A DNA stretch of 47,801 bases from Anaerolineaceae bacterium (GCA_035403345.1 DAONEZ010000001.1:1-47801), one strand, 5' to 3'; shown: positions 17,106 to 47,801, counted from the stretch's first letter. Made by a program: numbers and translations. The notes: generated by a model not told the origin, from the letters alone.

Positions 17106-17128
17106 TCCTTCCGGTGTACAATCAAAAT

Positions 17129-29141: not shown

Positions 29142-29318
29142 TTTTTATCAACATCCTTATATAAATCTATTACTGCTCAGGTATGGTTGATAGCCTGACC
29201 AGGAGTATTTCGTCGAGATAAAAAAATACCGTATCCCTTCTATTAATTCCTCGTCATTAATTATGACTCAATCAGGTAACGAACCTGGTTTCCCGAATTA
29301 ATGATAATAGGAGGTAAG

Positions 29319-30008
29319 ATGAAACGCACAATTGTATTTGCCACCGTTTTGACGGTCATTGTCCTGCTGGTCTCAGCCTTCGCTATCCCTGTGAAACAGG
29401 TGTCCGCCGCGGCTCAGGTCGGGGGCTCTAATTACATTCCCACGCCGCTCGCTCCAGTGAACATGATCATGACCACCACGCCTGAGTACAAATGGACCAG
29501 GGTAGAAAATGCCACCCAGTATCGTTTCAGGGTCTTCGAAGGCACAAATACTCAAGCCAAATTTACCAGGACCGTAATGGCCCAAAACTGCTACTCAACC
29601 TATTGCGCAGTCACTCCCGGAAATAAGCTCGAATCAAAGAAGTACCAGTGGCAGGTGCAGGCTTATGTCAACGGTCAATGGAGGGGGTATTCCAACCGCA
29701 AGCATTTCAGCATTGTTGTTCCTGTCCCGCTTGAACCGGCAGGGATCATCAACGACAACACCCCGACATTTGCTTGGACTGTAGTCGAGGGAGCCTCCCA
29801 ATACCGCTTCCAGGTGTTCAAAGCCGGAACAACCATGGTGTACTACAAGAATATCGTTCCTGTTGCTAATTGTGACACGACAAAATGCTCCTTCACCATC
29901 ACCAAGGAACTCCCCGAAGGGAAGTACCGCTGGAAAGTTCAGGCATTTATCGGGACCGACTGGAGGCCCTATTCCATCCTGAAATACTTCACGGTCGATA
30001 TGGATTAA
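29319..30008 (+). CDS. secreted protein made of two tandem copies of the ~90-aa C-x4-C module found at the N-termini of the 40.8-47.8 kb array
   Basis: Start ATG 29319 after AGGAGGTAAG. Signal peptide MKRTIVFATVLTVIVLLVSAFA. Module 1: TPEYKWTRVENATQYRFRVF...CYSTYC...YQWQVQA. Module 2: TPTFAWTVVEGASQYRFQVF...CDTTKC...YRWKVQA. Confidence 0.8.
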   Translation: MKRTIVFATVLTVIVLLVSAFAIPVKQVSAAAQVGGSNYIPTPLAPVNMIMTTTPEYKWTRVENATQYRFRVFEGTNTQAKFTRTVMAQNCYSTYCAVTPGNKLESKKYQWQVQAYVNGQWRGYSNRKHFSIVVPVPLEPAGIINDNTPTFAWTVVEGASQYRFQVFKAGTTMVYYKNIVPVANCDTTKCSFTITKELPEGKYRWKVQAFIGTDWRPYSILKYFTVDMD

Positions 30009-32563: not shown

Positions 32564-32585
32564 TGTAATCTTCTCCTGATAATGG

Positions 32586-33602: not shown

Positions 33603-33738
33603 AAAGCACCTCCATCACTGATTAAGATTATAGCAATTTGAGCGGCAATTAGAATACCGAGAATTGAGAAATGAGAATAGGCAAAAAAAGCCCGGCATCT
33701 CATATTAAGATACCGGGCGAGTTCAAGAAAGATGATGC

Positions 33739-34737
33739 TTAATTTCCCGGGACGGACTCTTTCCTCAGTGACTTGCGCACAAGCTTGACCAGTTCCACAA
33801 CCGTGTCAACCACGGTCACCACCAGGGCAATGCCGAAGGCAAGGCGGAAGCTTTCCATGCCCAGCACCTGGATGTTTTCAGCAATGTCCTCGCCAAACTT
33901 TACCAGGCTGGGGAACAATCCACTGGAGCCGTGCGCCGCCAGCCAGGCAGTATGCCCCTGGTAAAGCAGGACCAACACGCCGATGCTCAACAGGTTGACT
34001 GCCACCTGGGCGACACGGCTGCCGGTCGTCCAACGCCCCTGCCACAACAAGTACACATTCAATCCGATGCCGGCCAGCAGCGCCAGGATGATCCAGCCCA
34101 TGTATTGTGCGATGACCGGGTCAGGGTAGAACGCGCCGCCCGGGAACGTGATGAAGCCAATTTTGCCGGGGAAAGCCGCCAGCAAGCCCAGGAAAATGCT
34201 GCCAAAAACGATGCCCACGATCTGCTCGGATGGTTTGACTTTTTCATCCTCCTCGAACGCCGGCAAGGTTTTCGGATCCCATGCCTCTTTTTCCTTCAGG
34301 TCGGGATTCACTCCGAAGTGCTGCAGGATGAGGAAAACGATCACCACGGAACCCAGGGCAGCAGGGATGCTATTGACCAGCCCGGCCCAGGCGTTCCAGC
34401 CTGCGGCATGCGCCTCGCCAGCCAACAACCCCACGGCAATCGCAACAAGTTGCCCGCCGATCGTTGCTGCCAGGACGATCAGAGCCACCATCCGGAAGAC
34501 TGGATAGAGCTCCGGTCCGATCAGGTACTGCCGGCCGCCGGTGTAAGAAGCTGCCACCTTTGTGGGTTCCCCGGTCTCCTTGAGCAGCTCTGCTACATCC
34601 TCCTCGCTGGCCTGTCCGCCGAAGCGCTCTTCGAGGGTGTCGTTCAGGTGCGACCGCAGTTCGGCCAGGATGTCCGCGCGGTTCTTCGCGGGCAGGCGGC
34701 GACCCACTGCATGTAAATAACGTTCAACTAGGTTCAT
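33739..34737 (-). CDS. membrane protein with N-terminal HAAS/DUF1700-type domain (PadR-associated sensor/anti-regulator)
   Basis: MNLVERYLHAVGRRLPAKNRADILAELRSHLNDTLEE followed by about 6 TM helices. Lies 12 nt downstream of the PadR gene. Confidence 0.75.
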   Translation of the reverse strand: MNLVERYLHAVGRRLPAKNRADILAELRSHLNDTLEERFGGQASEEDVAELLKETGEPTKVAASYTGGRQYLIGPELYPVFRMVALIVLAATIGGQLVAIAVGLLAGEAHAAGWNAWAGLVNSIPAALGSVVIVFLILQHFGVNPDLKEKEAWDPKTLPAFEEDEKVKPSEQIVGIVFGSIFLGLLAAFPGKIGFITFPGGAFYPDPVIAQYMGWIILALLAGIGLNVYLLWQGRWTTGSRVAQVAVNLLSIGVLVLLYQGHTAWLAAHGSSGLFPSLVKFGEDIAENIQVLGMESFRLAFGIALVVTVVDTVVELVKLVRKSLRKESVPGN

Positions 34738-34749
34738 TCTTTCCTCCGT

Positions 34750-35100
34750 TTACTTTTCAATCTGTTCCAAAAGACTCTGCACCACGCGGCTGAGCTTCTG
34801 CCATTCTCCGGACAAGGAAGCCAATACCTCCCTGCCCTGCGGGCTGATCACGTAGTACCGGCGCGGTCTGGCACCATCCACCACCCAGGAACTCTGCAGT
34901 AATCCCTGGGATTCGAGCCGGCGCAGCATGGGGTACAACGTGCCCTGGTCCATCTCAACCCCGGCCGCGGTCAGATCCCCGATCAAGGCATAGCCGTACT
35001 TGTTTTCCTGCAACATGCACAGCACCGCCAGAGGCAGGGCACCCCGCCTCAACTCCTGTGAAAGATTGTCCAACTGCTCGTTCTGGTTTTGTGTTTTCAT
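34750..35100 (-). CDS. PadR-family transcriptional regulator
   Basis: Trimmed to ATG 35100. Winged-helix core YGYALIGDL...GTLYPMLRRLESQGLLQSSW. Confidence 0.85.
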   Translation of the reverse strand: MKTQNQNEQLDNLSQELRRGALPLAVLCMLQENKYGYALIGDLTAAGVEMDQGTLYPMLRRLESQGLLQSSWVVDGARPRRYYVISPQGREVLASLSGEWQKLSRVVQSLLEQIEK

Positions 35101-35103
35101 GCT

Positions 35104-35135
35104 TACAGTATACTGTATATCACACAATATGTCAA
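35104..35135 (-). promoter_or_regulatory. PadR promoter TTGACA-N17-TATACT with overlapping 14-bp perfect palindrome TACAGTATACTGTA; likely a near-leaderless transcript
   Basis: Minus strand reads TTGACAtattgtgtgatatacagTATACTgtaagcATG. The -10 ends 6 nt before the ATG. Palindrome at 35104..35117. Confidence 0.6.
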
Positions 35136-35171
35136 GTCTTTTAATATACCAATATTCATAATAATTTCAAA

Positions 35172-35209
35172 TATTAAGAAATACAGGGCAGGTAATCTTC
35201 CTGCCCTGT
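35172..35209 (-). terminator. rho-independent terminator after the DUF2202 gene
   Basis: Minus strand: ACAGGGCAGG-aagatta-CCTGCCCTGT followed by ATTTCTTAATATTT. Confidence 0.65.
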
Positions 35210-35234
35210 GCCTGATTCGATAAAATTTTCAGAA

Positions 35235-36044
35235 TTACCTGCCCCGGCCGCGTCCCTGCCCGCCAGCGCGCATGCCGGCTCCTCTGTCCATGGCGGAGTT
35301 TCCGCGCGTCACCTGGGTGGCTGCGTACTCCTCCTCGGTCATGTACTGCGGCTGGTAGGTCGTGCCGGTCTGAACCTGGTAGTTGGTGGCAAAGGCGTTC
35401 AGATGCATGTAGGAAGCCTTACGCAGGTTCTCGAACACAACCTGGATGTCCTGCTGATCAGTCTGTTCCAGGCGCTCATCGAGGTCGAGGATGTCCACTT
35501 CTTCGATGGCCCCGCCCACAAGCAAGGCGTCCTTGAGGGAGGTTTGACCTTTGGCGATCAACTCATCATACAAAGCCTGCAGGTCAGCATTGGTGAAAAC
35601 GCCGGCTTTCGTGGAGGCAGGATCAGCGACGCCATAACGGTCGAGAAGTTCAAGAACCGCATCCGCGTGTACCTGTTCGCTCGCGGCGATCCGCTCGAAT
35701 ACCGCCAGATCCCATTTTTTAGCTAAAACAGTGTACACATCATGGGCCAGCTTTTCTTCCTCGCGCATGTACAGCAGCGCATCCTTCTCTGCCTGGCTCA
35801 ACTCACCCAGGGGGAGATTGTCGATCAGTGACCCGGACTGGTTATAACCCAGGTAGCCGTTTTCAGCGTTGCCGATGGGCGAGCAGTTTCCAAGAGTCCC
35901 TGAAGCTCGTCCGATCCCATTGCCGTACCCATTCCCGGATGTTCCCAGGGAACCAGCCTGAACATTTTCTATTGTGAAAGCGCCAAAAACGAGCAGCACT
36001 GCCAGGCTAACCAATATAGAAACACGAACCATTTTCTTTTTCAT
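35235..36044 (-). CDS. secreted ferritin-like DUF2202-family protein
   Basis: 269 aa. Signal peptide, Gly-rich linker, then LSQAEKDALLYMREEEKLAHDVYTVL...ASEQVHADAV. Gly/Arg-rich tail. Confidence 0.7.
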   Translation of the reverse strand: MKKKMVRVSILVSLAVLLVFGAFTIENVQAGSLGTSGNGYGNGIGRASGTLGNCSPIGNAENGYLGYNQSGSLIDNLPLGELSQAEKDALLYMREEEKLAHDVYTVLAKKWDLAVFERIAASEQVHADAVLELLDRYGVADPASTKAGVFTNADLQALYDELIAKGQTSLKDALLVGGAIEEVDILDLDERLEQTDQQDIQVVFENLRKASYMHLNAFATNYQVQTGTTYQPQYMTEEEYAATQVTRGNSAMDRGAGMRAGGQGRGRGR

Positions 36045-36315
36045 TTTTTCTCCTTGAACTTCTAAATGTTTATTCTTGCCTGTTGTTGCATGTAATATAC
36101 AGGAAACAGAGATTGGATTGGTTTATTTTTGGTAAATCCGGACCTTCTGAATGAACAACTTATCCGCGAATTCGCGCGAATTCTTTGAATTTTTAATTGT
36201 ATTTTTAGTGTCTTTGGTCCTCTTTCGTGGTTTTAGTGTTCTGAACTTAAGATCGATCCACTAATTTCACGAATTTCTCGGATTTTTAAGATCATTTTTA
36301 ATGACTTTCTATAAG

Positions 36316-36398
36316 ATTTTATAAGTGTTTTTCGATTATTTTGTGGTTTTCGTGTTCGGCTCTTGTTCTTTTCAGTATCATCTGTGCTATCTGCGGAC
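36316..36398 (+). repeat. dispersed ~80-bp intergenic element (partner in inverse orientation at 46536..46616)
   Basis: attttataagtgtttttcgattattttgtggttttcgtgttcggctcttgttcttttcagtatcatctgtgctatctgcgga aligns with the reverse complement of 46536..46616 (attttatgtctttcgattttttttccgtggttttcgtgttctggtcttcttctgtgatatctgtgttatctgtgga). Confidence 0.8.
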
Positions 36399-36468
36399 AT
36401 CATTATTATTTCCACCTTTCGCCTGGTGTAAAATCAAAGCGCAAGCATTTTTCCTAAAAAGGACCCTT

Positions 36469-37518
36469 ATGCCCCATCCTCAACATGTTCCCCTGGTTGA
36501 AGTCACGCGCGGCACCGTCGTCGAATCCATCCATTACGGCTCGCTGGCTGTCTGCGATCCACTCGGCAACCTGGTTGCATCGGTAGGCGACCCCGACGCC
36601 GTGGTCTTCCTGCGCTCCTCCTCCAAGCCTTTCCAGGTTCTGCCTCTGGTGGAGCACGGCGGCATGGAGCGCTTAGGGCTGACCGAGCGTGAGTTGGCGG
36701 TCATGTGCGCCTCGCACCACGGCACGGATGAGCACGTGCGCGTCATTACAGGCCTCCAGGCCAAACTGGGAGTCACGCCTGATGATCTGCTGTGCGGCAT
36801 GCACACCCCTAGTGACCCAGCCACGGCCGAGCGCATGCTGCTGAACCACGAACCTAACTCTCCCCTGCGCCATAACTGCTCTGGCAAGCACACCGGCATG
36901 CTGGCGCAGTGCCTGTTGTTCGGTTACCCCACCACGGACTACATCAACCCGGCCCATCCCCTGCAGCAGCGCATCCTGCGCACCTTCAGCGAGATGACGG
37001 ATGTCCCCCTGGAACAGATTGAATTGGGCACCGACGGCTGCTCCGCCCCTGTTTTTGCCGTTCCGCTGCGCGCTGGGGCACTGTCCTTTGCCCGCCTGGC
37101 CGATCCCTCGCTGCTGACTGAGCCGCGCCGCTCTGCCCTGCAGCGCATCTTCAACGCCATGTGCACCAACCCGGACATGGTGGCCGGACCCGGCGCGTTC
37201 GACACGACTTTGATGACCGCCGGAGCCGGCCGCATCCTCACCAAGGGCGGCGCGGAGGGTTACCAGGCTGTGGCGGTGATTCCCGGAGCTTGCGGCGCGG
37301 GCAGCCCGGCCTACGGCATCACCCTCAAGATCTCAGATGGCGACCTGGGCGGCAGCCGCGCGCGCACCACCGCTGCGGTGGAAGCCCTGTATCAACTTGG
37401 TGCTCTTTCCTCTGATCAGCTTGAGAGCCTGAAAGAATACACCCGTCGACCGGTGTATAACTGGCGGCACATCGAAGTAGGCGAAGTGCGTGCCTGTTTC
37501 ACTCTCACAAATCAATAG
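36469..37518 (+). CDS. asparaginase family 2 protein (L-asparaginase II, Rhizobium-type)
   Basis: Trimmed to ATG 36469 (MPHPQHVPLVEVTRGTVVESIHYG...). Motifs RSSSKPFQ, CASHHG and NCSGKHTGML. Confidence 0.85.
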   Translation: MPHPQHVPLVEVTRGTVVESIHYGSLAVCDPLGNLVASVGDPDAVVFLRSSSKPFQVLPLVEHGGMERLGLTERELAVMCASHHGTDEHVRVITGLQAKLGVTPDDLLCGMHTPSDPATAERMLLNHEPNSPLRHNCSGKHTGMLAQCLLFGYPTTDYINPAHPLQQRILRTFSEMTDVPLEQIELGTDGCSAPVFAVPLRAGALSFARLADPSLLTEPRRSALQRIFNAMCTNPDMVAGPGAFDTTLMTAGAGRILTKGGAEGYQAVAVIPGACGAGSPAYGITLKISDGDLGGSRARTTAAVEALYQLGALSSDQLESLKEYTRRPVYNWRHIEVGEVRACFTLTNQ

Positions 37519-37548
37519 AAGATTCAATTACCAGTCTATTTAATAACA

Positions 37549-37583
37549 AAAGATCCCCGCACCGGCGTGGTGCAGGGATCTTC
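37549..37583. terminator. bidirectional hairpin between convergent asparaginase and methyltransferase genes
   Basis: AGATCCCCGCACC-ggcgt-GGTGCAGGGATCT with A-run upstream and T-containing tail downstream. Confidence 0.65.
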
Positions 37584-37598
37584 AAGTATCTACTTATG

Positions 37599-38987
37599 TC
37601 AGGCTTTCCGCCTGAACAGGTACAACGTGCGGTCGCTGCCTGGAATGGCTTCCTTGGCCATCAGATCAAAACAGCCGGCGAAAGCCTTTTCAAAGCCCGC
37701 CTCGTTGTATTGGTCGAAGATATCCTTGCGCGTGGCCAACAGGCGCTTGACCTGCGAGTCACTCTTGGGGACGAATTCAACGATCGCCCATTTACCGGCG
37801 GCAGCGAAGAATTGCGCCACCGAATCCAGCGGCACATTGTTGGAAATGGCCAAGTGGTGAATGAGCGCCAGTGCCATCACCAGGTCAACCGGACCGCGGT
37901 CCAGGAATGAATCCCGCTCGGCATGAGCCCAACCGAGCGCGGAACTGGGATTGGTGAGGTCGATGACCAGAGGCAGCAGGTGCTGCTCTGAGCCGGCTTT
38001 GAGCGCCAGGTAATCCTGCTCCACGGCAGCCGGGTCGATATCGCTGGCAATGGTCTCGATACCGCGGCGCGAGGCTTCGCGGCTGAACAAGCCATTGTTC
38101 GCGCCCAGGTCCCAGGCGGTATTTGGTGCAGCCTGCTCAATAAGGCTGCCCACGATGGCCCCCTTGGCTTTGAGGGCGTCATCGGAATAGTTGGTGGCCT
38201 GGTAATAAGCCCCCCACTCGGTGCCTTTCGGCTCCCATTTGAGTGGTTGGATGGTCTTTTCCAGCGAGTTGAACAGGTTGAGCAATGCGCCCTTGCTCAT
38301 CTGCACAGCGCTTGCCTGAGCGGACGGTTTGTCGGCGTACTGCTTTTGCGCCCTGGCGTGCAGGTGAATATGCAGCGCCAGCCCGGAGAGGCCAATGGCT
38401 GTCTTGCCAGGCAGCAGCTGCGCTGCCAGGTCGAGCGGAATGCCGTCGATGTACACCCGCAGCAATTGCGTCAGGCGGATATCCACCAGTGATGCCAAAG
38501 CCAGCGGTGCCAGGAAGTGCTGGCAGAACTGGCGGTAGCCGTCCCAGGCAGCGCCTTCCTTATAATTATCAAATGAAAGCGTATCGATCAGGATGGGCTT
38601 GCCGTTGATGAACTGGACGTTGTAAGCGCTGGCGTCCTTGAGCAGCATCCCCTTTTCCAAACCCAGGCGCGCCGCCGACAGGGTGAGCAGGGCTGCGTCT
38701 TTGATCTGTGAAAAGCTCCACTCATAGGGGTAGGAGATGAACGGCACCACCTGCGGTTGGAGCACCTTGTAGGCTAACTCCGGAAGCGCAGGCGCGGTGG
38801 TGCTCTCACTGTGTGCGATGAGCATTCCGGACTTGACCAACGCGTCGTAAAGTCCACCGGTCATGAATTTGTCATAAGCTGCGCGGTAAACCTGGTTTAC
38901 CTGGCGGTATAAGGTTCCCTCGCGGCGGAAGATGAACCCGCTCGGGTCGCGGAACGAAGCTGAACTGCGTTCAAAGTCCGGGTTCAT
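37599..38987 (-). CDS. class I SAM-dependent methyltransferase with large N-terminal domain (NoeA-like)
   Basis: 462 aa. N-terminal FRDPSGFIF. SAM motif I AWDLGANNGLFS and motif post-I IASDID. Confidence 0.8.
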   Translation of the reverse strand: MNPDFERSSASFRDPSGFIFRREGTLYRQVNQVYRAAYDKFMTGGLYDALVKSGMLIAHSESTTAPALPELAYKVLQPQVVPFISYPYEWSFSQIKDAALLTLSAARLGLEKGMLLKDASAYNVQFINGKPILIDTLSFDNYKEGAAWDGYRQFCQHFLAPLALASLVDIRLTQLLRVYIDGIPLDLAAQLLPGKTAIGLSGLALHIHLHARAQKQYADKPSAQASAVQMSKGALLNLFNSLEKTIQPLKWEPKGTEWGAYYQATNYSDDALKAKGAIVGSLIEQAAPNTAWDLGANNGLFSREASRRGIETIASDIDPAAVEQDYLALKAGSEQHLLPLVIDLTNPSSALGWAHAERDSFLDRGPVDLVMALALIHHLAISNNVPLDSVAQFFAAAGKWAIVEFVPKSDSQVKRLLATRKDIFDQYNEAGFEKAFAGCFDLMAKEAIPGSDRTLYLFRRKA

Positions 38988-39187
38988 TCCTCGGGCTTTT
39001 CCTTTTCCTCTTCAGTAGGCTGCGGCGGTACATATTTTTCGCCCTTGAGGAAGGCGCGGATGCGCCCCCAGAAGACCTTCGCCAGAATACCGAGGCCGCC
39101 CAACAAACCGGCAGCCAGTAATTGCACCAACAAGCTGCCCGAACCGGGATCAAGATAATTCAGTTTAAAAAGGATAAAGCCCATCAT
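38984..39187 (-). CDS. small membrane protein translationally coupled to the methyltransferase
   Basis: 67 aa. One hydrophobic helix (GSGSLLVQLLAAGLLGGLGILA) plus an acidic tail. 4-nt overlap with the downstream start. Confidence 0.55.
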   Translation of the reverse strand: MMGFILFKLNYLDPGSGSLLVQLLAAGLLGGLGILAKVFWGRIRAFLKGEKYVPPQPTEEEKEKPEE

Positions 39188-39324
39188 TATTCTCCAGGGT
39201 GGATTTAGGCGATAATTATAACCCTTTCCCGGTATAAACTTGCGGGTTCACTCATCCAGGGAGTTGAAACCAGCCTGATTTCTGCATATACTATAGGTGA
39301 AAACACGCTGCCGAGGAGGTTGGT

Positions 39325-39555
39325 ATGAACGTTATCCCCCTGCTGGATGAATCCCTGCAACTCGAGATCTTTTACGAGGGCTCGGATTGCGACCTGGATG
39401 ACAATATCTGCGTCCGCATCACCGAATCCTGCCTGGAGGAAGAGAAGATCTTCGTGCATGACGAGAGCAACCTGTACCTGACCGCAGACCAGGCCAACGC
39501 CATCATCGCCGCCCTGCAAAAAGCCGTGCAAAAGAGCACCGCCCAAAAGAAGTGA
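39325..39555 (+). CDS. small acidic hypothetical protein
   Basis: 76 aa. Strong RBS GAGGAGGTTGGT before the ATG. The antisense 113-aa ORF lacks an RBS. Confidence 0.55.
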   Translation: MNVIPLLDESLQLEIFYEGSDCDLDDNICVRITESCLEEEKIFVHDESNLYLTADQANAIIAALQKAVQKSTAQKK

Positions 39556-39571
39556 TCAGAGAACCTGCGAG

Positions 39572-40192
39572 GTGAGCATGGAAAAGATCGATCTGCGCAA
39601 GCGTTATAAATCCCTGTATTCCCCTTCCACCAAAGGCTTCTCCCTAATCGAGATCCCTCCCCTGAATTACCTGATGATCGACGGACATGGTGACCCCAAT
39701 ACCTCGCAGCGCTTCCAGGACGCGCTGCAAACGCTCTACTCCATCTCCTACACGCTCAAGTTTGCGCTCAAGAAATCACAGGGCGTAGATTTTACCGTGA
39801 TGGGATTGGAAGGACTATGGTGGATGCCGGACATGCGCGAATTCACCGTGGAGCGCAAGGCGGACTGGGATTGGACGCTGCTCATGCTGCAGCCGGATTT
39901 CATTACCCCGCAGATGATAGAGGAGATCGCCCGCAGCCTGACCGCCAAAGGCAAAGCCCCCCTGGCGGCCGAGACGCGCCTGGAGACCCTTGAAGAAGGA
40001 CTATGCGTGCAGATCCTCTATATTGGTGCTTACAAGGACGAAGGTACTGTTATCGCGGGCATGCACGCCTTCATTGCCGACCAGGGATATATGCGTACCG
40101 GCAAGCACCATGAGATCTACCTGAGCGACATGCGCCGCGTGGCACCGGAGAAGAACCGCACCATCCTGCGCCAGCCGATAAAAAAAGCCTGA
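39572..40192 (+). CDS. GyrI-like small-molecule-binding domain protein
   Basis: About 205 aa (GTG 39572 or ATG 39578). Pattern YLMIDGHGDPN...GLEGLWW...ILYIGAYKDEG...HHEIYLSD is typical of stand-alone GyrI-like proteins. Confidence 0.75.
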   Translation: MSMEKIDLRKRYKSLYSPSTKGFSLIEIPPLNYLMIDGHGDPNTSQRFQDALQTLYSISYTLKFALKKSQGVDFTVMGLEGLWWMPDMREFTVERKADWDWTLLMLQPDFITPQMIEEIARSLTAKGKAPLAAETRLETLEEGLCVQILYIGAYKDEGTVIAGMHAFIADQGYMRTGKHHEIYLSDMRRVAPEKNRTILRQPIKKA

Positions 40193-40196
40193 CCTG

Positions 40197-40610
40197 TCAG
40201 GTCAGAGCTTTGGCTTCTTCACTCAATTCTTTCTCTTTATCCGATTCAGGCACCAGCACGATACCGTGCGGCAGCGGTTTTCCATCCAGGTCAACATGGA
40301 TGAAAGTGATAAATCCGCGCACAGCCAGTTTGCCGCCCGCCCGTACCTCTATGTTGCTCACGATCTTGGTCTCGCCGGTGAGCACCGCGCGGCTGGTGAA
40401 AGTCACTAATTCGCCTTTTTTAATCGGGCGGGTGAAGGTCATGCCGTGGATCTTCAGGCAGACTATATTCTCAGGCTTGGTCATTGAAGCGGCTGAAATG
40501 AATCCGGACTCAACGAACCATTCCGCTGTGCGACCTGCGTAGAGGGTACCGTGATGGTTCAGGTCTTCCCCTTTTACAAGATGAACACTGGTAAAGATAG
40601 GAATCGCCAT
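40197..40610 (-). CDS. hotdog-fold acyl-CoA thioesterase
   Basis: 137 aa. DLNHHGTLYAGRTAEWFVESG is typical of the YciA/4HBT-type family. Confidence 0.8.
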   Translation of the reverse strand: MAIPIFTSVHLVKGEDLNHHGTLYAGRTAEWFVESGFISAASMTKPENIVCLKIHGMTFTRPIKKGELVTFTSRAVLTGETKIVSNIEVRAGGKLAVRGFITFIHVDLDGKPLPHGIVLVPESDKEKELSEEAKALT

Positions 40611-40677
40611 TTTTTCTCCTTAATTAACTTACCTATTGTACTGCTGAACTGCCGCCTAACATGATCAACGGAAAATG

Positions 40678-40706
40678 ATTGAAATTGGGCAACGAATATT
40701 GTATGA
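40678..40706 (+). promoter_or_regulatory. sigma70-like promoter TTGAAA-N17-TATGAT for array gene A
   Basis: Read directly. Followed 6 nt later by GGACTCCAGTT. Confidence 0.6.
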
Positions 40707-40807
40707 TGGAAATGGACTCCAGTTTTCTCCATCGTTGATACATATTATTTTCATCCCTGGATCATTGCCCTGGAGGGGGAATGAGAATTCCTGTGTGGGA
40801 GGGAGAA

Positions 40808-41761
40808 ATGAGAACAAAGTTTTCACGCGTGTTGATCTTGCTGGTGTTGGTGACGTTCCTGACCGCTGCTTTTCTGCCGCAGTCACTAGTGCAGGCACAG
40901 GGAGTGCCGCTTGGAGGGATCGTTCCCGTGCTGCTCAGCCCGCACGATACCATCCTGGCGAAGAACCCCACTTACAAGTGGACACCGGTGTTCGGCGCGG
41001 AGGTGTACCAGTACCAGGTGTGGAAAGGCAGCACAAAAGTGCTGGATAAGTCACCCGATGCTGATATTTGCTCAGACAGCCTGTGTGAACGGACACCGGC
41101 ATTTACCCTGGGGTATTACGCCTACAAGTGGCGCGTGCGGGCCCGGATCGATGGCTCGTGGAAAGCGTGGTCGGCTTACATGAACTTCACCGTTTCGCCG
41201 CCAAGTTTCTCGTCCACTTTCAATAACGAGATGAACGGCTGGGCCAAGATGTCCGGCAAGGATTATTACAAGTCGTCCACATATATTTACACCCTGGGTA
41301 TGGCGAACTGGTGGTCAACCCTGCGCCGCACCAGCGGTCAGTACACCGATTTTAAGTATTCCGCCAATATGAAACGACCTTCAGGGTATTCCCCCAACTA
41401 CCTGGTCATCCGCATGGGATCGAATACCCTGCCCACCAATGGACGCTGGTATCCGGGGTACTATTTCGGCTATGACAACTGGGGAAACTGCTTCATTTTT
41501 GAAATGAGCACAACAGGTTCCTCTACCACCCTCTTCTACAAACCAGCCTGCCCGGTGAACAAGATGGGCTGGAATGTTATAACTGTAGAGGCGATCGGTT
41601 ACAAATTCTGGTTTTATGTAAACGGCAGCCTGATGAAATTCTTTACAGACCTCACGTTCCCCCGGGGGTACGTCGGGATCGCCAGTTATCGCAATTCAAC
41701 AGCATCCCAGACCTTCTACGTAGATTGGGCCAAGTTGGTAGTAAAGGAAACCGCGCAATAG
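40808..41761 (+). CDS. array paralog A: secreted protein, N-terminal C-x4-C module plus C-terminal ConA-like (DUF1080/LamG-like) domain
   Basis: ATG 40808 after GGGAGGGAGAA (alternative ATG 40781). Signal peptide. NPTYKWTPVFGAEVYQYQVW...CSDSLC...YKWRVRA. C-terminal domain has GW..., YTDFKYS, WYPGYYFGY, GWNVITVEAIGYKFWFYVNG, YVDWAKL. Confidence 0.85.
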   Translation: MRTKFSRVLILLVLVTFLTAAFLPQSLVQAQGVPLGGIVPVLLSPHDTILAKNPTYKWTPVFGAEVYQYQVWKGSTKVLDKSPDADICSDSLCERTPAFTLGYYAYKWRVRARIDGSWKAWSAYMNFTVSPPSFSSTFNNEMNGWAKMSGKDYYKSSTYIYTLGMANWWSTLRRTSGQYTDFKYSANMKRPSGYSPNYLVIRMGSNTLPTNGRWYPGYYFGYDNWGNCFIFEMSTTGSSTTLFYKPACPVNKMGWNVITVEAIGYKFWFYVNGSLMKFFTDLTFPRGYVGIASYRNSTASQTFYVDWAKLVVKETAQ

Positions 41762-41782
41762 GTCCTGCAACCTATCGTACAA

Positions 41783-41813
41783 AGGCAGGTTCTCAAGGAA
41801 CCTGCCTATTTAA
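41783..41813 (+). terminator. rho-independent terminator
   Basis: AGGCAGGTTC-tcaa-GGAACCTGCCT followed by ATTTAAT. Confidence 0.65.
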
Positions 41814-41868
41814 TCCACCATACGACAATTAATCCTAAATATTGGTGTGGACAGATCGATCCTCTTGC

Positions 41869-41897
41869 TTGACTTTGCTGGAAAAATCCCGTATTAT
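41869..41897 (+). promoter_or_regulatory. sigma70-like promoter TTGACT-N17-TATTAT for array gene B
   Basis: Read directly. Confidence 0.6.
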
Positions 41898-41949
41898 TAT
41901 GATAATAAATATCTTAATACTCTTTATTATCGTGAGAATTGGAGGAGAT

Positions 41950-42915
41950 GTGAAAAAGCTGCACCTGTTCGGTTCTTTGTTGATGCTGGTTGTGCTGATA
42001 GCTGCTCTCCTGCCGGTTGGCAGTGTTTCTGCCTCACAAGCGGGCAGGACCATCAGCTACATCCCTGTGACAACCACCCCGCTGGGTACCATCACTGACA
42101 CCACCCCTCTTTACCGGTGGACCCGAGTTTATACAGCCACCAAGTATCAATTCCAGGTATTTAAAGGCACTACGAAACTGCTGGATAAAACGGTTAAAAG
42201 CAGCGTGTGCGGAGCGGTGTACTGTTTTCAAACCCCTAGCCTGACCCTTGGCTACAACGTTTACAAATGGCGCGTGCGTGCCTTCGTAGGAGGTGCGTGG
42301 GGGGCCTACTCTGCATTCAGGACATTTACCATCTCCGCGCCCTCATTTGATACCCAGTTCAACTACGGCAGCACGGGGGGATGGGCGCGAAAATCCGGCG
42401 GAACTTGGGACTTGAGTGGTTTTTCCTATCATACCGAAGGGCTCCCCGACAAGTGGACCAATGCTTACTATACAGGCGGGCAATATACCGATTTTGACTA
42501 TTCTGCCCAGGTCTGGCGCTACGGCAATGATCCTGTTTACCTGGCAGTCCGAATGGGATCTACCGTGGGTCTATCAATGGATAAATGGTACCCGGGTTAC
42601 TATTTTGGATATAACAACCAGGGATATTACGCAATCTGGCGAGTGGCAAGTTACGGCGGGGAGCAGGAAATTGTCAGTGGATTGATCACCCCGGCTGTTA
42701 ACCAGAATGGGTGGAATACCCTGAGAGTAAAAGCTGTCGGCAACCAGTTCTGGTATTACATCAACAACATGCTGGTTTACAACTTTACTGATACCAGTTC
42801 AGAGAAACGCTTACGCGGCTTTGTAGGTGTTGCCACCTACCGCAATCCAGCATCTTTAACTTACGGTTTTTACATGGATTACGCCAAACTGGATGTGATC
42901 AAGACCCCCCAGTAG
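41950..42915 (+). CDS. array paralog B
   Basis: GTG 41950 after GGAGGAGAT. Signal peptide KKLHLFGSLLMLVVLIAALLPVGSVSA. TPLYRWTRVYTATKYQFQVF...CGAVYC...YKWRVRA. C-terminal WYPGYYFGY, GWNTLRVKAVGNQFWYYINN, YMDYAKL. Confidence 0.8.
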   Translation: MKKLHLFGSLLMLVVLIAALLPVGSVSASQAGRTISYIPVTTTPLGTITDTTPLYRWTRVYTATKYQFQVFKGTTKLLDKTVKSSVCGAVYCFQTPSLTLGYNVYKWRVRAFVGGAWGAYSAFRTFTISAPSFDTQFNYGSTGGWARKSGGTWDLSGFSYHTEGLPDKWTNAYYTGGQYTDFDYSAQVWRYGNDPVYLAVRMGSTVGLSMDKWYPGYYFGYNNQGYYAIWRVASYGGEQEIVSGLITPAVNQNGWNTLRVKAVGNQFWYYINNMLVYNFTDTSSEKRLRGFVGVATYRNPASLTYGFYMDYAKLDVIKTPQ

Positions 42916-43259
42916 ACTCCAGTTTTAGTGCTTCGTCAATACAAAGGAGGCGGACTTGTTTCCCGCCTCCTATTCAAATATTGACCTCGATGGCAACTAT
43001 CCATTCACCCATAAGCGGTTAACTGGATTGAAAGTTCACATCTGATATTGATAAATTAACACACCCTTCATCGCTCTCCTTCAATACTTCTACGGGTACC
43101 TGGCATAAGTAACACATGGGCTGCCGGGCAAGCCAAGGTTTCCAATTGCATCCTCTCTATTGGTTTTTAAAAGCCGTCTTTACGTCGAATGCGAAAAAGG
43201 GTGATTCTACCCTTATTGTAATTTCATGGAGTTCAAATCCAGTCTACTTGCCCGACAGA

Positions 43260-43288
43260 TTGTTTTTCGCCAGTTAAAGTCGTATTAT
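43260..43288 (+). promoter_or_regulatory. candidate promoter TTGTTT-N17-TATTAT for array gene C
   Basis: Weak -35. Followed 6 nt later by GGAGTCCAGTT, as in gene A. Confidence 0.4.
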
Positions 43289-43388
43289 TTAATTGGAGTC
43301 CAGTTACCCTCACCGTTGCCACATAAATTTTACGAACCAGGACCATCGACCCGAAATGAAAATATGGATACCTGTTTGGGAGAAAAAC

Positions 43389-44372
43389 ATGCACACTAAA
43401 CCGTCTCCTCTGATTTTGATGCTGGTCGTGGTGACGTTCCTGGCCGCATCGATCCTGCCTGAAGCCGGAGTGAGTGCCCAGGGAGAGACGGCTGGAGCGA
43501 ATGTCCCCGCCCCGCTACGACCTCTCAACACGATCGAATCGAAGACTCCAACCTATACCTGGACAAAAGTCGTTGGCGCGACGAATTACCAGTACCAGGT
43601 GTACAAGGATACGACCAGGTTGGCGGATGTAAGGCTTCCTGCAACCGTGTGCGGTACATCTGCCTGTTCGCATAAGCCAACCCTCGTATTGACCTTTGAG
43701 ACCCACAAATGGCGGGTGCGTGCCAGGGTCTCAGGTAGTTGGATGCCGTGGTCAGAATACGCGGTATTCTTCGTGTCGGCTCCATCATTCGATTCCAGTT
43801 TCAACGGCTCAATGGCAGGGTGGAAGTCCAGGAGCGCTGCCAAATGGATGCTCCAGCCCGCGAAAGTGATTGCGCATGGTGAACTGATGAAGTGGTCGTC
43901 GCTTTATCGTTCCAGCGGGTTATTCAAAGACTTCCGCTACACCGCCTGGGTGAATCGCTATCACCCGAACGGGAATAGCTGCCTGGCATTCCGCATGGGC
44001 TCATTGACTGGATCCGAATATGACGATTGGTATCCGGGGTATCTATTCTGCCTTGGGGAGGATTGGCAATTCATCATCCTCCGTTATGATGCTCCTGAGT
44101 CCTACACTACCTTGCATGATTACACCCCCTCTTCATCTATAATTCTGGATGCCTGGAATGAACTGGAAGTGGTCGCGCAGGGGGATCGCTTTGATTTCTA
44201 CATTAACTGTGACCACGTTGCCACTGTTATAGATGATACCTACGACCGGGGATATGTAGGGATAACCATGTTCAAGAACTCCGGTTCCTTCACAACTCTC
44301 ATGGTGGATTGGGCAAAACTATCAGTGCTTGGAAAGCTCAGGGATTATCGGAACGAAGCCGCGGGAAGGTGA
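43389..44372 (+). CDS. array paralog C
   Basis: ATG 43389 (alternative 43356). TPTYTWTKVVGATNYQYQVY...CGTSAC...HKWRVRA. C-terminal WYPGYLF, AWNELEVVAQGDRFDFYIN, MVDWAKL. Confidence 0.8.
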   Translation: MHTKPSPLILMLVVVTFLAASILPEAGVSAQGETAGANVPAPLRPLNTIESKTPTYTWTKVVGATNYQYQVYKDTTRLADVRLPATVCGTSACSHKPTLVLTFETHKWRVRARVSGSWMPWSEYAVFFVSAPSFDSSFNGSMAGWKSRSAAKWMLQPAKVIAHGELMKWSSLYRSSGLFKDFRYTAWVNRYHPNGNSCLAFRMGSLTGSEYDDWYPGYLFCLGEDWQFIILRYDAPESYTTLHDYTPSSSIILDAWNELEVVAQGDRFDFYINCDHVATVIDDTYDRGYVGITMFKNSGSFTTLMVDWAKLSVLGKLRDYRNEAAGR

Positions 44373-44427
44373 AACGGTTATAATACCTCTGCCTGGCATC
44401 TGATCTTTTCGACCGGAGGTAAACTTT

Positions 44428-45429
44428 ATGATTCTTAAAACGGGCGCGAAATCCGTCCTGTTTGGATTTCTGATGTTCACTCTGTTGATGGCCACATTGG
44501 TCACACAAACCACCCCAGCTTTCGCCCTTTCGACCTCTCCGGCTGCCGTATCTGCCCCGCAGCCGCTTGAGCCCAACAAGGTCATCACCGACACCACCCC
44601 CACCTACCGTTGGACGCAGGTGAGCGGCGCTTCTTCATACGTGCTGCAGGTATTGAAGGAATACAGCAACACGGTGGTCTATAGCTATACGGTCAGCAGT
44701 TTGGGGGCGTGTTATTCGGGCACGTGCTCCTACACCCCCGCGCAGAAGCTGCAGAGTTACGGTTATCGCTGGCGCGTGCGCGTCTCAGGCTCAACAATTG
44801 CCTGGTCGCCCCTGACCATGTTCTACATTCGCGCTACTGATTACAAAGCGCACCACTTTACCTACGGACTCATGTACCACTGGCAGCGTAAGTCCGGCGG
44901 AACCTGGTGGGCGCAATATGATGGCGGCAAGCAGGGTTACCTGGTATCAGAAGGCTTACCGGACAAATGCTCGGCTGCTGTGCACTACGTCAGCAGCACT
45001 TATGACAACTTCATTGCCGAGACGAAGATGATGATCACCGGCGCTCCCTCCGGCGGGAGATACCCCGAGGCTTACCTGGCGCTGCGTATGAAGAACAACG
45101 TGAACGCTGCCACGCAGTGCTGGTACGGCGGTTACCTGTTCGGTTATTCGCGCGACGGTAAATATAGTTTCTGGAAGATGCAACCCAACGGCACCTGGAC
45201 TGCGCTCATCCCGCCCACATTTACCAGCCTGATCAAAACCTCTGATTGGAACAACTTCAAGGTGTCAGCCAATAAGAGCAATTTCTACCTGTTCATAAAC
45301 GGGAAACCAGTCGGGAGCGTCACTGACAGCAGCTATTCCATCGGTTATCTTGGCTTTGAGATGGTCAACCACGGCGCAGTGCAAACAAAGTTCTACGCGG
45401 ACTGGCTCACCATCGAGCCGCTTCCATAA
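44428..45429 (+). CDS. array paralog D
   Basis: GGAGGTAAACTTT RBS. TPTYRWTQVSGASSYVLQVL...CYSGTC...YRWRVRV. C-terminal WYGGYLFGY, DWNNFKVSANKSNFYLFINGK, YADWLTI. Confidence 0.85.
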   Translation: MILKTGAKSVLFGFLMFTLLMATLVTQTTPAFALSTSPAAVSAPQPLEPNKVITDTTPTYRWTQVSGASSYVLQVLKEYSNTVVYSYTVSSLGACYSGTCSYTPAQKLQSYGYRWRVRVSGSTIAWSPLTMFYIRATDYKAHHFTYGLMYHWQRKSGGTWWAQYDGGKQGYLVSEGLPDKCSAAVHYVSSTYDNFIAETKMMITGAPSGGRYPEAYLALRMKNNVNAATQCWYGGYLFGYSRDGKYSFWKMQPNGTWTALIPPTFTSLIKTSDWNNFKVSANKSNFYLFINGKPVGSVTDSSYSIGYLGFEMVNHGAVQTKFYADWLTIEPLP

Positions 45430-45450
45430 GTACCGGGGAAGGAACCTTCA

Positions 45451-45486
45451 AAATGGCAGGCGAAGCAAAGCCTGCCATTTTATTTC
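45451..45486 (+). terminator. rho-independent terminator
   Basis: AAATGGCAGGC-gaagcaaa-GCCTGCCATTT followed by TATTT. Confidence 0.75.
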
Positions 45487-45493
45487 CAACTAT

Positions 45494-45522
45494 TTGACTT
45501 TGATGGCTACATATTGTAAGAT
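45494..45522 (+). promoter_or_regulatory. sigma70-like promoter TTGACT-N17-TAAGAT for array gene E
   Basis: Read directly. Confidence 0.6.
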
Positions 45523-45550
45523 TTTTACAAATAGCTCATTTGGAGGGAAG

Positions 45551-46519
45551 ATGGATAAGAGAACCCGTTCGATCGTTGTACTCATCACTGCATGGATCGC
45601 TCTCACGCTACTTGCCGGTGTGTTTCTGCCTGCCGCCAGCGTCAGCGCCAGGCAGATCACCATCCCTACCCCGCTTTCCCCCACCAGCATCATCACGGAT
45701 AAGACTCCCACCTTCACCTGGAGCGCGGTGACCGGGGCGAAAACCTACCAGCTCGAGGTCTGGCGCAACTCCGAGCGAATATACATCGAGGACGTTGCCT
45801 CGACCAATTGCAGTGCTGGCACCTGTGCCTACACGCCAGCGAAAAGTCTCATGATCGTAGGGTACAAATGGCGCGTTAATGTAAAAGGGAACCCCTTTTC
45901 TGCATTCAAGTCCTTCATCATCTCACGTCCGCCCTGGAACATCCGCGACGGTTTCCCGGGAGATATGATGCTGTGGGAGACCAAAGCCGGCGGAAAATGG
46001 AGCGTGAGCGACAAGGCTATCTACTCCAAGGGGCTGCCGCAAAAGTATTCCTCGATCTATTACACCTGGAGCCGGGCTTACGCCGATTATGAGATCAGCT
46101 CCAAACTTAAAGTGGAAGGCAGCCCGGTGGGTGGGGTTTACCCCGAGGCTTACATCGCGGTGCGCATGGACAGCCACGTTAAGGCCACTGATCTGGCCTG
46201 GTACAGCGGCTACCTGTTCGGCTACTACTCAAATGGCAAATATGCCGTGTGGAAGATGAACAAGGACGAATCACGCACCGCGCTGGCCGGTCCTACCTAT
46301 TCACCTTATATCCACAAGAATGGCAGTTACAGCAACTGGAACTGGCTGCGCGTGGTGGTGGATGGGAACAAATTAGATTACTACATGAATGACCAACTAT
46401 TGGTTTCGCTCAAGGATAGTTCCTACAGCATCGGTTTCCTGGGCTTTGAGATGAAAAACCCCGGCAGCACACCCACAACCATGTATGTGGATTGGGTCTC
46501 GGTCTACCTCATTGAGTAA
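45551..46519 (+). CDS. array paralog E
   Basis: ATG 45551 after GGAGGGAAG. The track ORF start 45350 lies inside gene D. TPTFTWSAVTGAKTYQLEVW...CSAGTC...YKWRVNV. C-terminal WYSGYLFGY, NWNWLRVVVDGNKLDYYMND, YVDWVSV. Confidence 0.85.
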   Translation: MDKRTRSIVVLITAWIALTLLAGVFLPAASVSARQITIPTPLSPTSIITDKTPTFTWSAVTGAKTYQLEVWRNSERIYIEDVASTNCSAGTCAYTPAKSLMIVGYKWRVNVKGNPFSAFKSFIISRPPWNIRDGFPGDMMLWETKAGGKWSVSDKAIYSKGLPQKYSSIYYTWSRAYADYEISSKLKVEGSPVGGVYPEAYIAVRMDSHVKATDLAWYSGYLFGYYSNGKYAVWKMNKDESRTALAGPTYSPYIHKNGSYSNWNWLRVVVDGNKLDYYMNDQLLVSLKDSSYSIGFLGFEMKNPGSTPTTMYVDWVSVYLIE

Positions 46520-46535
46520 ACCGGAATCAATCCAC

Positions 46536-46616
46536 AGATAACACAGATATCACAGAAGAAGACCAGAACACGAAAACCACGGAAAAAAAATCGAAAGACA
46601 TAAAATTGTTTATTTA
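46536..46616 (-). repeat. inverse-orientation copy of the ~80-bp dispersed element at 36316..36398
   Basis: See the 36316..36398 entry. About three quarters of positions match by eye. Confidence 0.8.
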
Positions 46617-46663
46617 TTAATGGCAATTCCGGAACCCGTAGAAAACTATAGCCTGATAACCGG

Positions 46664-46694
46664 GAACCGTGAAGAACACTTCACGGTTCTTTTA
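46664..46694 (+). terminator. hairpin plus T-run, candidate terminator
   Basis: GAACCGTGAAG-aaca-CTTCACGGTTC followed by TTTTAT. Confidence 0.6.
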
Positions 46695-46780
46695 TCCTGG
46701 TTTTCTTTTTTCATAATTACTATTCACTGTTCACAATTTTCGAAGTCAGTTCTCGGTTCTCTCTTCTCGTTTTGTCCCAG

Positions 46781-46836
46781 ATTACTAATTACTGATTACT
46801 ATCCACTAATCACCAACCACTATGCACCAATCACTG
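46781..46836 (+). repeat. eight tandem degenerate heptads (consensus A-T-C/T-A-C-T/C-A)
   Basis: ATTACTA ATTACTG ATTACTA TCCACTA ATCACCA ACCACTA TGCACCA ATCACTG. Ends 11 nt before the -35 of gene F. Confidence 0.85.
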
Positions 46837-46847
46837 TTCCCTTATGG

Positions 46848-46876
46848 TTGACAGCCTGCCCGTCCCGTTTTATGAT
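46848..46876 (+). promoter_or_regulatory. sigma70-like promoter TTGACA-N17-TATGAT for array gene F
   Basis: Read directly. Shares TATGATGGAAAT with the gene A promoter. Confidence 0.65.
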
Positions 46877-46941
46877 GGAAATATCACAAGCGGGTGCGGA
46901 CATCAACCTGTTCGCCGCGCCTGCCACACAGGAGGATCCAA

Positions 46942-47801
46942 ATGAATCAGAAAACCATCCGGGTCAGCATTCTGACCATGGCCATCGCGCTGGCACTGTT
47001 CGTGTCGGCCATCCTGCCCGCCGGAGCGGTCTCCGCCGGCAGCGCGCCCGCCGCGGCCGTCACCGTACCCACCATCCTGGGACCCAAAATGACCACGCTG
47101 GACACCACCCCCATTTACAAGTGGACGAAGGTAACCAACGCCACCATGTACCAGTACCAGGTGTTTCTTAACGGCACCAAGGTGCTGGATAAAACCCCCG
47201 AAGCCGCGGATGTCTGCGGCGCGACCACCTGCCAGAAGGAACCCGCCTTCACCCTGGGTCTCAACCACTACCAGTGGCGTGTGCGCGCGCGCATCGGCTT
47301 CAACACCTGGACGGCCTGGACTTACTTCACCGATTTTTACGTCTCTCCCCAGCCCTTCACTGCACCTTTTAACGGATCAAAGCCTGGCTGGTCAAAGTTG
47401 GGCAGCGCAAGCTGGGCCACGATCTACGGCAAGCACCTGTACACCAACGGTCTGCCGGGTAAATTCTCGTCGATCTATTACAACAAGGGTCAGTTCTCTG
47501 ACTTCAACTTCAGTGCGCTGGTGAAGCGCGAGAACAGCAGCAAGCCCAATTACATCGTTGTGCGCGCCGGAAGCCTGGTGAAAGCTGGCAACGAGGAATG
47601 GTACCCGGCTTACATGTTCGGTTATACCAACAACGGCGAATTTGCAGTGATGTACTACAACGGCAGCTCGCACACTATGATCCAGGACTGGACCGCCACG
47701 CCGGCCATCATCAAGAACGGCTGGAATGAGCTCAAAGTGGATGCCTACGGCAAGACCTTCAAATTCTACATCAACGGCACGCTGGTGAAGCAGTTCAACA
47801 G
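46942..47801 (+). CDS. array paralog F (3' end runs off window)
   Basis: Absent from the ORF track. Hand translation from ATG 46942 after AGGAGGATCCAA gives MNQKTIRVSILTMAIALALFVSAILPAGAVSA...TPIYKWTKVTNATMYQYQVF...CGATTC...YQWRVRA...GWSKLGSASW...FSDFNFS...WYPAYMFGY...GWNELKVDAYGKTFKFYINGTLVKQFN. Confidence 0.85.
   Translation, partial: MNQKTIRVSILTMAIALALFVSAILPAGAVSAGSAPAAAVTVPTILGPKMTTLDTTPIYKWTKVTNATMYQYQVFLNGTKVLDKTPEAADVCGATTCQKEPAFTLGLNHYQWRVRARIGFNTWTAWTYFTDFYVSPQPFTAPFNGSKPGWSKLGSASWATIYGKHLYTNGLPGKFSSIYYNKGQFSDFNFSALVKRENSSKPNYIVVRAGSLVKAGNEEWYPAYMFGYTNNGEFAVMYYNGSSHTMIQDWTATPAIIKNGWNELKVDAYGKTFKFYINGTLVKQFN

Follow-up and report, generated by a model that had tools for sequence, protein, structure and literature searches.

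A lineage-specific tandem array of predicted secreted FN3-like/ConA-like proteins in an Anaerolineaceae bacterium, with a probable role in glycan binding

DUF1080 and family 66 of the carbohydrate-binding modules (CBM66) denote one and the same domain (PMC5673643). The CBM66 modules are non-catalytic and bind levan or xanthan (PMC11002231); DUF1080 proteins have been described as 3-keto-glycoside lyase/hydratases, as in the case of BT2 (bioRxiv 10.1101/2024.03.25.586180), and as small endo-glucanase/xanthanases of broad specificity (PMC10881899). Secreted multi-copy DUF1080 sets are known in Planctomycetes that degrade polysaccharides (PMC5673643). A search for literature on Anaerolineae and DUF1080 found nothing. 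The locus described here lies in a 47,801-nucleotide stretch of DNA from an Anaerolineaceae bacterium (GCA_035403345.1 DAONEZ010000001.1:1-47801; hereafter the window), in which six same-strand genes in tandem, A to F, occupy the region from 40808 to the window end. Each encodes a fibronectin type III (FN3)-like module followed by a concanavalin A (ConA)-like domain of predicted DUF1080/CBM66 type. The locus is best described as a new tandem subfamily of known domains, specific to the Anaerolineae, and not as a new kind of module. Its products are read here, with a probability of about 0.55, as secreted, non-catalytic and probably glycan-binding proteins.

The six genes share one layout, namely a Sec-type leader, a module of ~92 amino acids (aa) with an invariant C-x4-C and a C-terminal domain of ~185 aa (Table 1). 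The leaders begin with a basic n-region, run on through some 18 hydrophobic residues and end in V-Q-A, V-S-A or A-F-A, and none carries a lipobox Cys; they are predicted to be type-I signal peptides, from which the proteins would be secreted. In a full-length alignment the paralogs are 29-43% identical to A and share 30 invariant columns, both Cys of the C-x4-C among them. Hidden Markov models (HMMs) of both parts, searched against the six-frame translation of the whole window, matched only A to F and a gene at 29301-30008 (E 1e-37 to 1e-83). The six-gene same-strand array and its three-part architecture, as proposed by a first-pass annotation of this DNA, are therefore confirmed by open reading frames, alignment and HMM searches, and the eight module copies counted there correspond to the six of A to F and the two of 29301-30008. 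The landmark motifs listed in that annotation are mostly correct, and several are not invariant: C has H instead of Y ahead of KWRVRA and reads WYPGYLFCL, A has G.DY instead of G.W, and C and D depart from Y.DF.YS.

Matches to PF06439 (DUF1080, '3-keto-disaccharide hydrolase') were obtained for all six genes, alongside weaker Laminin_G_3 matches. The gathering cut-off of 26.8 bits is exceeded by B (33.5), C (35.0) and F (31.8 bits), with E (26.7), D (24.6) and A (18.4 bits; E 2.4e-3) below it. At the sequence level, membership of the C-terminal domain in the PF06439 superfamily is secure because the family profile finds the DUF1080 structure 4jqt in the PDB with an E-value of 6.6e-11; the CBM66 of levanase is found with 4.4e-5 over 168 positions. 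For B, an alignment of 24 sequences gave an AlphaFold2 (AF2) model that is all-beta, with a predicted local distance difference test score (pLDDT) of 89.3 and a predicted template modelling (TM) score of 0.80, and Foldseek returned 354 PDB matches for it at E<=1e-3. The top match is the CBM66 of the B. subtilis levanase (4azz; E 2e-8, TM score 0.81 on the target, root-mean-square deviation 2.9), and the next include the DUF1080 structures 4jqt, 3h3l, 3u1x, 3s5q and 3osd from the Joint Center for Structural Genomics, laminarinases of glycoside hydrolase family 16 (GH16), leguminous-type lectins and the BT2/AL2 hydratases 8tda and 8v31. The PF06439 matches, the model with its structural matches and the profile search against the PDB all agree with the first-pass assignment of this domain to the ConA-like jelly rolls of DUF1080 type, which is correct.

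The CBM66 of the SacC levanase (4azz, 4b1l, 4b1m), the best structural match, is likewise a ConA-like jelly roll of ~165-185 aa, and it is a non-catalytic C-terminal appendage of secreted enzymes, as the corresponding cassette probably is in relatives of the array proteins. It differs in being only ~18% identical to the array domain, which has a conserved W-Y-P-G-Y-x-F-G-Y strand of its own, and in its partners, which are GH32, GH9 and GH43 hydrolases/lyases (PMC11002231), whereas members of the array family are joined to proteases or to no partner. With the PF06439 proteins, including BT2/AL2 and the structures 4jqt, 3h3l, 3u1x and 3osd, the array shares the sequence family, the fold and the occurrence as secreted multi-copy sets, known there from Planctomycetes; unlike them, its members score only 18-35 bits around the cut-off of 26.8, do not keep the BT2 metal/active-site residues and have no adjacent 3-keto pathway genes.

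Full-length relatives are rare. A word-indexed search of a 5.8-billion-protein index retrieved 22 proteins, and the C-terminal domain profile 12; the only name in their clusters was that of P0020, 'subtilisin family serine protease'. Eight loci were found in species-representative genomes, seven of them labelled Anaerolineae. The eighth, L001 (CAYVRM010000228.1), is labelled 'uncultured Syntrophorhabdus sp.' and duplicates part of the Anaerolinea metagenome-assembled genome (MAG) contig L002, with the same HMM scores and lengths; to judge from the sequences it is probably a binning error in a public MAG. Tandem members also occur in L002 (at least ten), L008 (at least six) and L003 (three). 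The cultured Pelolinea submarina MO-CFX1 and UBA5211 encode proteins of ~1000 aa with the order linker-(N-N-C)-linker-(N-N-C), where N is the FN3-like module and C the ConA-like domain, and the linkers are acidic and made of Thr/Pro/Glu; in Pelolinea they are encoded in NZ_AP018437.1 at 1.5627-1.5692 Mb.

In other relatives the same cassette is fused to enzymes. A 798-aa protein of L002 joins Inhibitor_I42 and Peptidase_C1 to N and C; a 711-aa protein of L007 joins Inhibitor_I9 and Peptidase_S8 to C, and one of L008 joins I9 and S8 to N and C; a 962-aa protein of L004 has I9, ~300 aa without an assigned family, three N and C. P0031 (I42 and C1) and P0166 (Trypsin) carry N repeats and C, P0141 has I9 and further sequence with C, and P0020 and P0040 combine S8 with N. 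Every catalytic partner identified is thus a protease or a protease propeptide (S8/I9, C1/I42, Trypsin, or I9 with the unassigned region), and no glycoside hydrolase partner was seen among the about a dozen fusion proteins surveyed. Among the 150 best N-module proteins, twelve have an array-type C-terminal domain at their end. This C-terminal position on proteases is typical of a non-catalytic targeting module and is the main reason why binding is favoured here over hydrolysis. Secreted proteases with CBM-like modules are known, for example the mucinase-type peptidases with lectin-like modules. The proteins of L002, L004, L007, L008, P0031 and P0166 resemble them in combining a protease, Ig-like spacers and a terminal beta-sandwich; the window genes differ in encoding the binding cassette alone, without a protease domain.

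The large fusion proteins have, after each ConA-like domain, a conserved tail of the form (I/V)S(P/A)EQxALN(Q/E)AA...G..GS.EG, which stands at the C-terminus and, in Pelolinea, also behind the internal ConA domain. It was seen in L004 (8618-11503), L005, L006 (4786-7836 and 8195-11254), L007 (1660-3792) and L002 (10577-12970), and is absent from the six window paralogs. The tail is possibly a signal for sorting, for docking or for cleavage.

The N-terminal module was thought novel in the first-pass annotation, which is no longer tenable. An AF2 model of it (pLDDT 97.4) has seven strands in an FN3/Ig-like sandwich, and its best Foldseek matches in the PDB are SiiE BIg and cytokine-receptor or neural FN3 domains, with TM scores of 0.64-0.70 and modest E-values of ~5e-3. 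An exhaustive hmmsearch with the eight window copies recruited 17,190 representative proteins at E<=1e-3 (7,427 at 1e-10 and 1,396 at 1e-30); in this family the module occurs in up to 39 tandem copies per protein, in giant extracellular proteins. The consensus of 1564 recruited copies, PTLLSPAGTITDTTPTFSWSAVSGATSYQLQV...GTYYWRVRA...GGWGAWS...FTV, exceeds the Pfam gathering cut-offs of Ig_Rha78A_N (36.9 bits), fn3 (31.3) and Big_13 (30.6), and a relative, P0052, scores 229 bits on Ig_Rha78A_N. The module therefore maps to known Pfam families at the superfamily level only, and the window's own copies remain below every cut-off: Pfam gave nothing at E<=0.1 for the six array modules (D was closest, with Big_13 at E 0.21), and the two-module gene at 29301-30008 reached E 4.9e-5 on Big_13, its 24.2 bits lying under the cut-off of 27. 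The NCBIfam scan of the proteins gave no family, and a sequence search of the module against PDB chains gave only noise (E >= 0.4).

Like fn3 (PF00041), Big_13 (PF19077) and Ig_Rha78A_N (PF25788), the module is a seven-strand beta-sandwich with the consensus P-T-F-x-W ... Y-x-L-Q-V ... Y-Y-W-R-V-R-A ... W-S ... F-T; unlike them, it carries the C-x4-C pair, and its eight window copies score under each of these models. In the AF2 model the two Cys, which in B are Cys87 and Cys92, lie on either side of a four-residue turn between strands C' and E. Both are present in 422 of the 1564 family copies and just one in 20, which is what a disulfide predicts, so that the pair probably forms one. The C-x4-C is a subfamily feature, present in ~27% of the family copies. 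The module is thus an FN3-like repeat of a very common kind, poorly captured by current Pfam models, in a sub-type that is probably stapled by a disulfide.

Whether the ConA-like domains bind or cleave was examined in 42 C-terminal domains, taken from the window and from related loci. In B numbering, the positions conserved among them are F137, W145, W153, G164, R201, W213, Y214, G216, Y217, F219, W255, N256, N272, D281 (in 86%), G290, G293 and D310 (in 93%). W255-N256 and N272 belong to the stretch 'WN...V.A.G..F.FYING', which we take to be a generic LamG/ConA strand motif marking the fold and not a ligand. The metal/active site proposed for BT2 comprises Glu103, Asn134, Glu164, Gln166, Tyr190, Lys245, Gln273 and His275, 'highly conserved across 3183 homologs' (bioRxiv 10.1101/2024.03.25.586180). 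In the HMMER alignment to 4jqt, the N-S-G, Q-x-E-x-D and Q-x-H of the latter become P/N/E, (Y/L/M)-F-G-Y and (A/T/E)-x-(Y/F/V/K) in the array family. Because none of the columns conserved across the 42 domains is Glu, Gln, Lys or His, the BT2 set, as compared through 4jqt and column composition, apparently cannot be present. The GH16 motif E-[ILV]-D-[IVAF]-[VILMF](0,1)-E was found in 0 of the 42 domains and in 0 of the six window proteins. Partners of the 3-keto pathway (a Gfo/Idh/MocA oxidoreductase or a sugar-phosphate-isomerase-like lyase) do not adjoin the array, the neighbours of which are GyrI-like, 4HBT thioesterase, methyltransferase, asparaginase II and other genes.

These results bear on the idea, which we regard as unlikely, that the C-terminal domains are enzymes, either endo-glycanases like that of Thermogutta or 3-keto-glycoside lyase/hydratases like BT2, and that the array is a set of secreted polysaccharide degraders. 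Such a reading would be in keeping with membership in PF06439, where DUF1080 enzymes of both forms are known, with the multi-copy secreted DUF1080 sets of polysaccharide-degrading Planctomycetes (PMC5673643), with the presence of GH16 laminarinases and BT2/AL2 among the significant Foldseek matches and with the conservation of D281 and D310, which could serve in structural Ca2+ binding or, less likely, in catalysis. It is opposed by the missing BT2 residues and GH16 motif, by the non-catalytic CBM66 and the compact 4jqt, and not the 'fingered' enzymes, being the best matches in structure and sequence, by the use of the cassette as a C-terminal accessory of proteases and by the lack of 3-keto pathway oxidoreductase/isomerase genes next to the array. 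From the earlier alternative of 'binding or hydrolytic' proteins, binding is thus favoured by the missing catalytic residues and the protease fusions, hydrolysis being the less likely of the two. Several points tell against binding of glycans without catalysis. ConA-like/LamG domains can bind proteins as well as sugars, and the glycan is a putative ligand. The BT2 residues were compared indirectly and not by a direct alignment, and the fusion survey is limited to about a dozen proteins (from the loci and the top exhaustive matches) and is not a census. An extracellular DUF1080 protein of Thermogutta, of 23.7 kDa, is reported to be a broad endo-glucanase/xanthanase (PMC10881899), so that catalysis by another residue set is conceivable, the array domains having the two conserved Asp (D281, D310).

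The ConA-like domain might instead bind protein, or a polymer of the cell's own envelope or sheath, in which case the proteins would be building material or decoration of the filament surface, to which they would also hold proteases, and would not capture environmental glycans. The protease fusions fit such tethering equally well, and the giant extracellular proteins with up to 39 copies of the FN3-like module, the (FN3-FN3-ConA)x2 proteins of Pelolinea and UBA5211 with their acidic linkers and the conserved tail of the fusions, possibly a sorting signal, are all in its favour. Since the six window proteins have no tail, lipobox, transmembrane anchor or known wall-binding domain, and the closest characterised relatives bind soluble polysaccharides, we hold this reading, too, to be improbable. 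Under the preferred reading, as glycan binders, the array products would be exported, soluble two-domain proteins, the Sec signal peptide of which is cleaved at the V-x-A site. The mature protein would begin with the FN3/Ig-like beta-sandwich, its C'-E loop probably stapled by the Cys-x4-Cys disulfide, and this domain would act as a rigid spacer or stalk, because tandem repetition to as many as 39 copies in giant extracellular proteins is typical of spacers. The DUF1080/CBM66 jelly roll would be a lectin- or CBM-like ligand binder without catalysis, its ligand most probably a glycan. The (FN3)n-ConA cassette would in the Anaerolineae also target secreted proteases of the subtilisin, papain and trypsin types, to the C-terminal end of which it is attached, and the stand-alone paralogs would form a repertoire of binders with different, long-established specificities, most with a promoter of their own. 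A more far-reaching proposal, which is speculative and doubtful, is that of an extracellular 'capture' system specific to the Anaerolineae, in which the cassette steers S8, C1 and S1 proteases to glycan-decorated substrates, the arrays of free cassettes supply the specificity repertoire and the fusion tail is a new sorting/docking signal. If this were true, the free cassettes, with 7 to 10 or more per locus and strain-level gain and loss, would serve as adaptors, as decoys or to capture substrates when the cells scavenge by proteolysis in anaerobic sludge, and the tail 'S-x-E-Q-x-A-L-N-Q-A-A' would be a so far undescribed sorting/docking signal.

The array is real and comprises at least seven genes. 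Protein E recurs without any difference on at least 14 contigs from different samples (ENA, Logan and JGI), flanked by the same genes in the same order; F is complete there (323 aa; L012-L014) and is followed downstream by a seventh paralog, G, with a signal peptide, TPTFQWKRV..., CGTTYC and then the start of a ConA-like domain. Collinearity of the window with a sister strain (L009, L010, L011) extends over 31951-43038 (95.8% nucleotide identity) and 43471-45558 (89.2%). Tandem paralogy, and the many metagenomic contigs that stop inside the array, might raise the suspicion of an assembly artefact, in which repeats of one or two genes had collapsed or expanded. We consider such an artefact extremely improbable, because independent assemblies carry the array, complete F and add a seventh paralog, because gene order is unchanged in the sister strain, with 89-96% nucleotide identity and one gene more, and because paralogs only 29-43% identical in amino acids are far too dissimilar to mislead an assembler. 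The additional gene of the sister strain is an intact paralog (~320 aa) between B and C (L009 11088-12635; also L010 and L011), which is missing from the window. The B-C spacer of the window (42916-43388, 473 bp) contains no remnant of it that could be recognised by HMM match or blastn similarity. Copy number in the array therefore varies between strains through gene gain or loss.

In a neighbour-joining tree of the 42 C-terminal domains, members of the array pair with those of other genomes: A with L002_2324, B with L003_9977, D with L002_3478, E with L002_4609 and, more loosely, C with L003_8807. The clade of D and E is nearer to the Pelolinea fusion proteins, and the L008 array is a separate lineage-specific expansion. 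The cross-genome pairing places the window duplications before the split from the Anaerolinea MAG, and the paralogs are thus old. The ratio of nonsynonymous to synonymous substitution rates (dN/dS; Nei-Gojobori) was calculated for ortholog pairs with the sister strain L009, giving 0.59 for A, which has only a handful of substitutions, 0.20 for B, 0.43 for C and 0.16 for D, as compared to 0.07-0.19 for flanking genes. Calculation among the paralogs themselves was rejected, the divergence being saturated at 29-43% identity. No gene-wide positive selection was found in A to D against L009, and the values show purifying selection gene-wide under somewhat relaxed constraint. The description of the family as 'diversifying' is thus not sustained, since A to E each have an ortholog in a distant Anaerolinea MAG, B to D have dN/dS of 0.16-0.43 and diversification is not demonstrable. 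Synonymous divergence (dS) from L009 across 31951-45558 is mosaic, being 0 in a DUF2202 gene, 0.005 in A and 0.5 in B and D; a rise from 0 to 0.5 from one gene to its neighbour is a sign that strains have recombined, and the mosaic suggests that such exchange across the locus was recent.

Table 1. Coordinates of genes, domains and putative transcription signals in the window
Feature	Coordinates	Strand	Remarks
Paralog A	40808..41761	+	317 aa; FN3-like module 40925-41200; ConA-like domain 41201-41749
Paralog B	41950..42915	+	GTG start; 321 aa; FN3-like module 42064-42339; ConA-like domain 42340-42903
Paralog C	43389..44372	+	327 aa; FN3-like module 43506-43781; ConA-like domain 43782-44330
Paralog D	44428..45429	+	333 aa; FN3-like module 44557-44835; ConA-like domain 44839-45423
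Paralog E	45551..46519	+	322 aa; FN3-like module 45665-45928; ConA-like domain 45929-46516
Paralog F	46942..47801	+	cut by the window end, 286 of 323 aa; FN3-like module 47068-47349; ConA-like domain from 47350
Two-module secreted protein (predicted)	29301..30008	+	235 aa; tandem FN3-like C-x4-C modules 29439-29720 and 29721-30005; without ConA-like domain
Promoter-like site of A	40679..40707	+	TTGAAA, 17 nt spacer, TATGAT; 10/12 matches
Promoter-like site of B	41869-41897	+	sigma-70-like; 10/12 matches
Promoter-like site of E	45494-45522	+	sigma-70-like; 9/12 matches
Promoter-like site of F	46848-46876	+	sigma-70-like; 11/12 matches, best of the set
Terminator-like hairpin after A	41784..41806	+	from folding of intergenic DNA
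Terminator-like hairpin after B	42946-42970	+	from folding of intergenic DNA
Terminator-like hairpin after D	45454-45477	+	tail TTTTATTT
Terminator-like hairpin after E	46664-46689	+	tail TTTTAT

The earlier suggestion that at least four genes have their own promoters and several their own terminators agrees with the putative signals of Table 1. In the promoter scan the region yielded 13 sites, where shuffled sequences have 6.6 +/- 2.2. Intergenic folding gave the four hairpins, which are GC-rich, have about -15 to -16 kcal/mol each and are followed by T-rich tails; a generic terminator scan of the region showed no enrichment (7 vs 7.8). C and D may be co-transcribed, since the gap between them is only 55 bp and has no hairpin. 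The E-F spacer (46520-46941, 422 bp) is unusually long and has A-rich stretches and reiterated ATTACT/ATCAC-like ones upstream of the promoter-like site of F.

The start codon of A has an alternative in an in-frame ATG at 40781, which would add the peptide MRIPVWEGE (40781-40807), and gene callers differ accordingly between 326 and 317 aa (L012, L013). C likewise has an in-frame upstream ATG (43353-43388) with a similar peptide, MKIWIPVWEKN. The shared stretch could represent either an alternative true start or a conserved ribosome-binding region. The two-module gene, which has a signal peptide, sits 11 kb upstream of the array among the unrelated neighbours YdjC and NT5C-like. Elsewhere in the window, three tandem paralogous genes for FAD_binding_2 flavoproteins (22000-23976, 24192-25919 and 26166-27890, + strand), with a twin-arginine translocation signal on at least the last, form a second, unrelated paralog array, and a phage-integrase-family gene (PF00589, E 1.5e-22) occurs at 17006-18163 (+) in otherwise chromosomal surroundings.

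Both domains of the array proteins belong to known superfamilies, and the combination of an Ig-like spacer with a beta-sandwich binding module is commonplace; the locus therefore raises no new mechanistic question. The Anaerolineae, filamentous fermenters that abound in anaerobic digesters and sediments, are poorly characterised. If the array proteins are indeed binders, they would constitute a small, lineage-restricted repertoire of secreted lectin-like proteins, and the link to proteases hints at how the Anaerolineae target extracellular substrates. The family may be of use in annotating 'hypothetical' proteins of the Chloroflexota secretome, and it might yield new CBM66 specificities.

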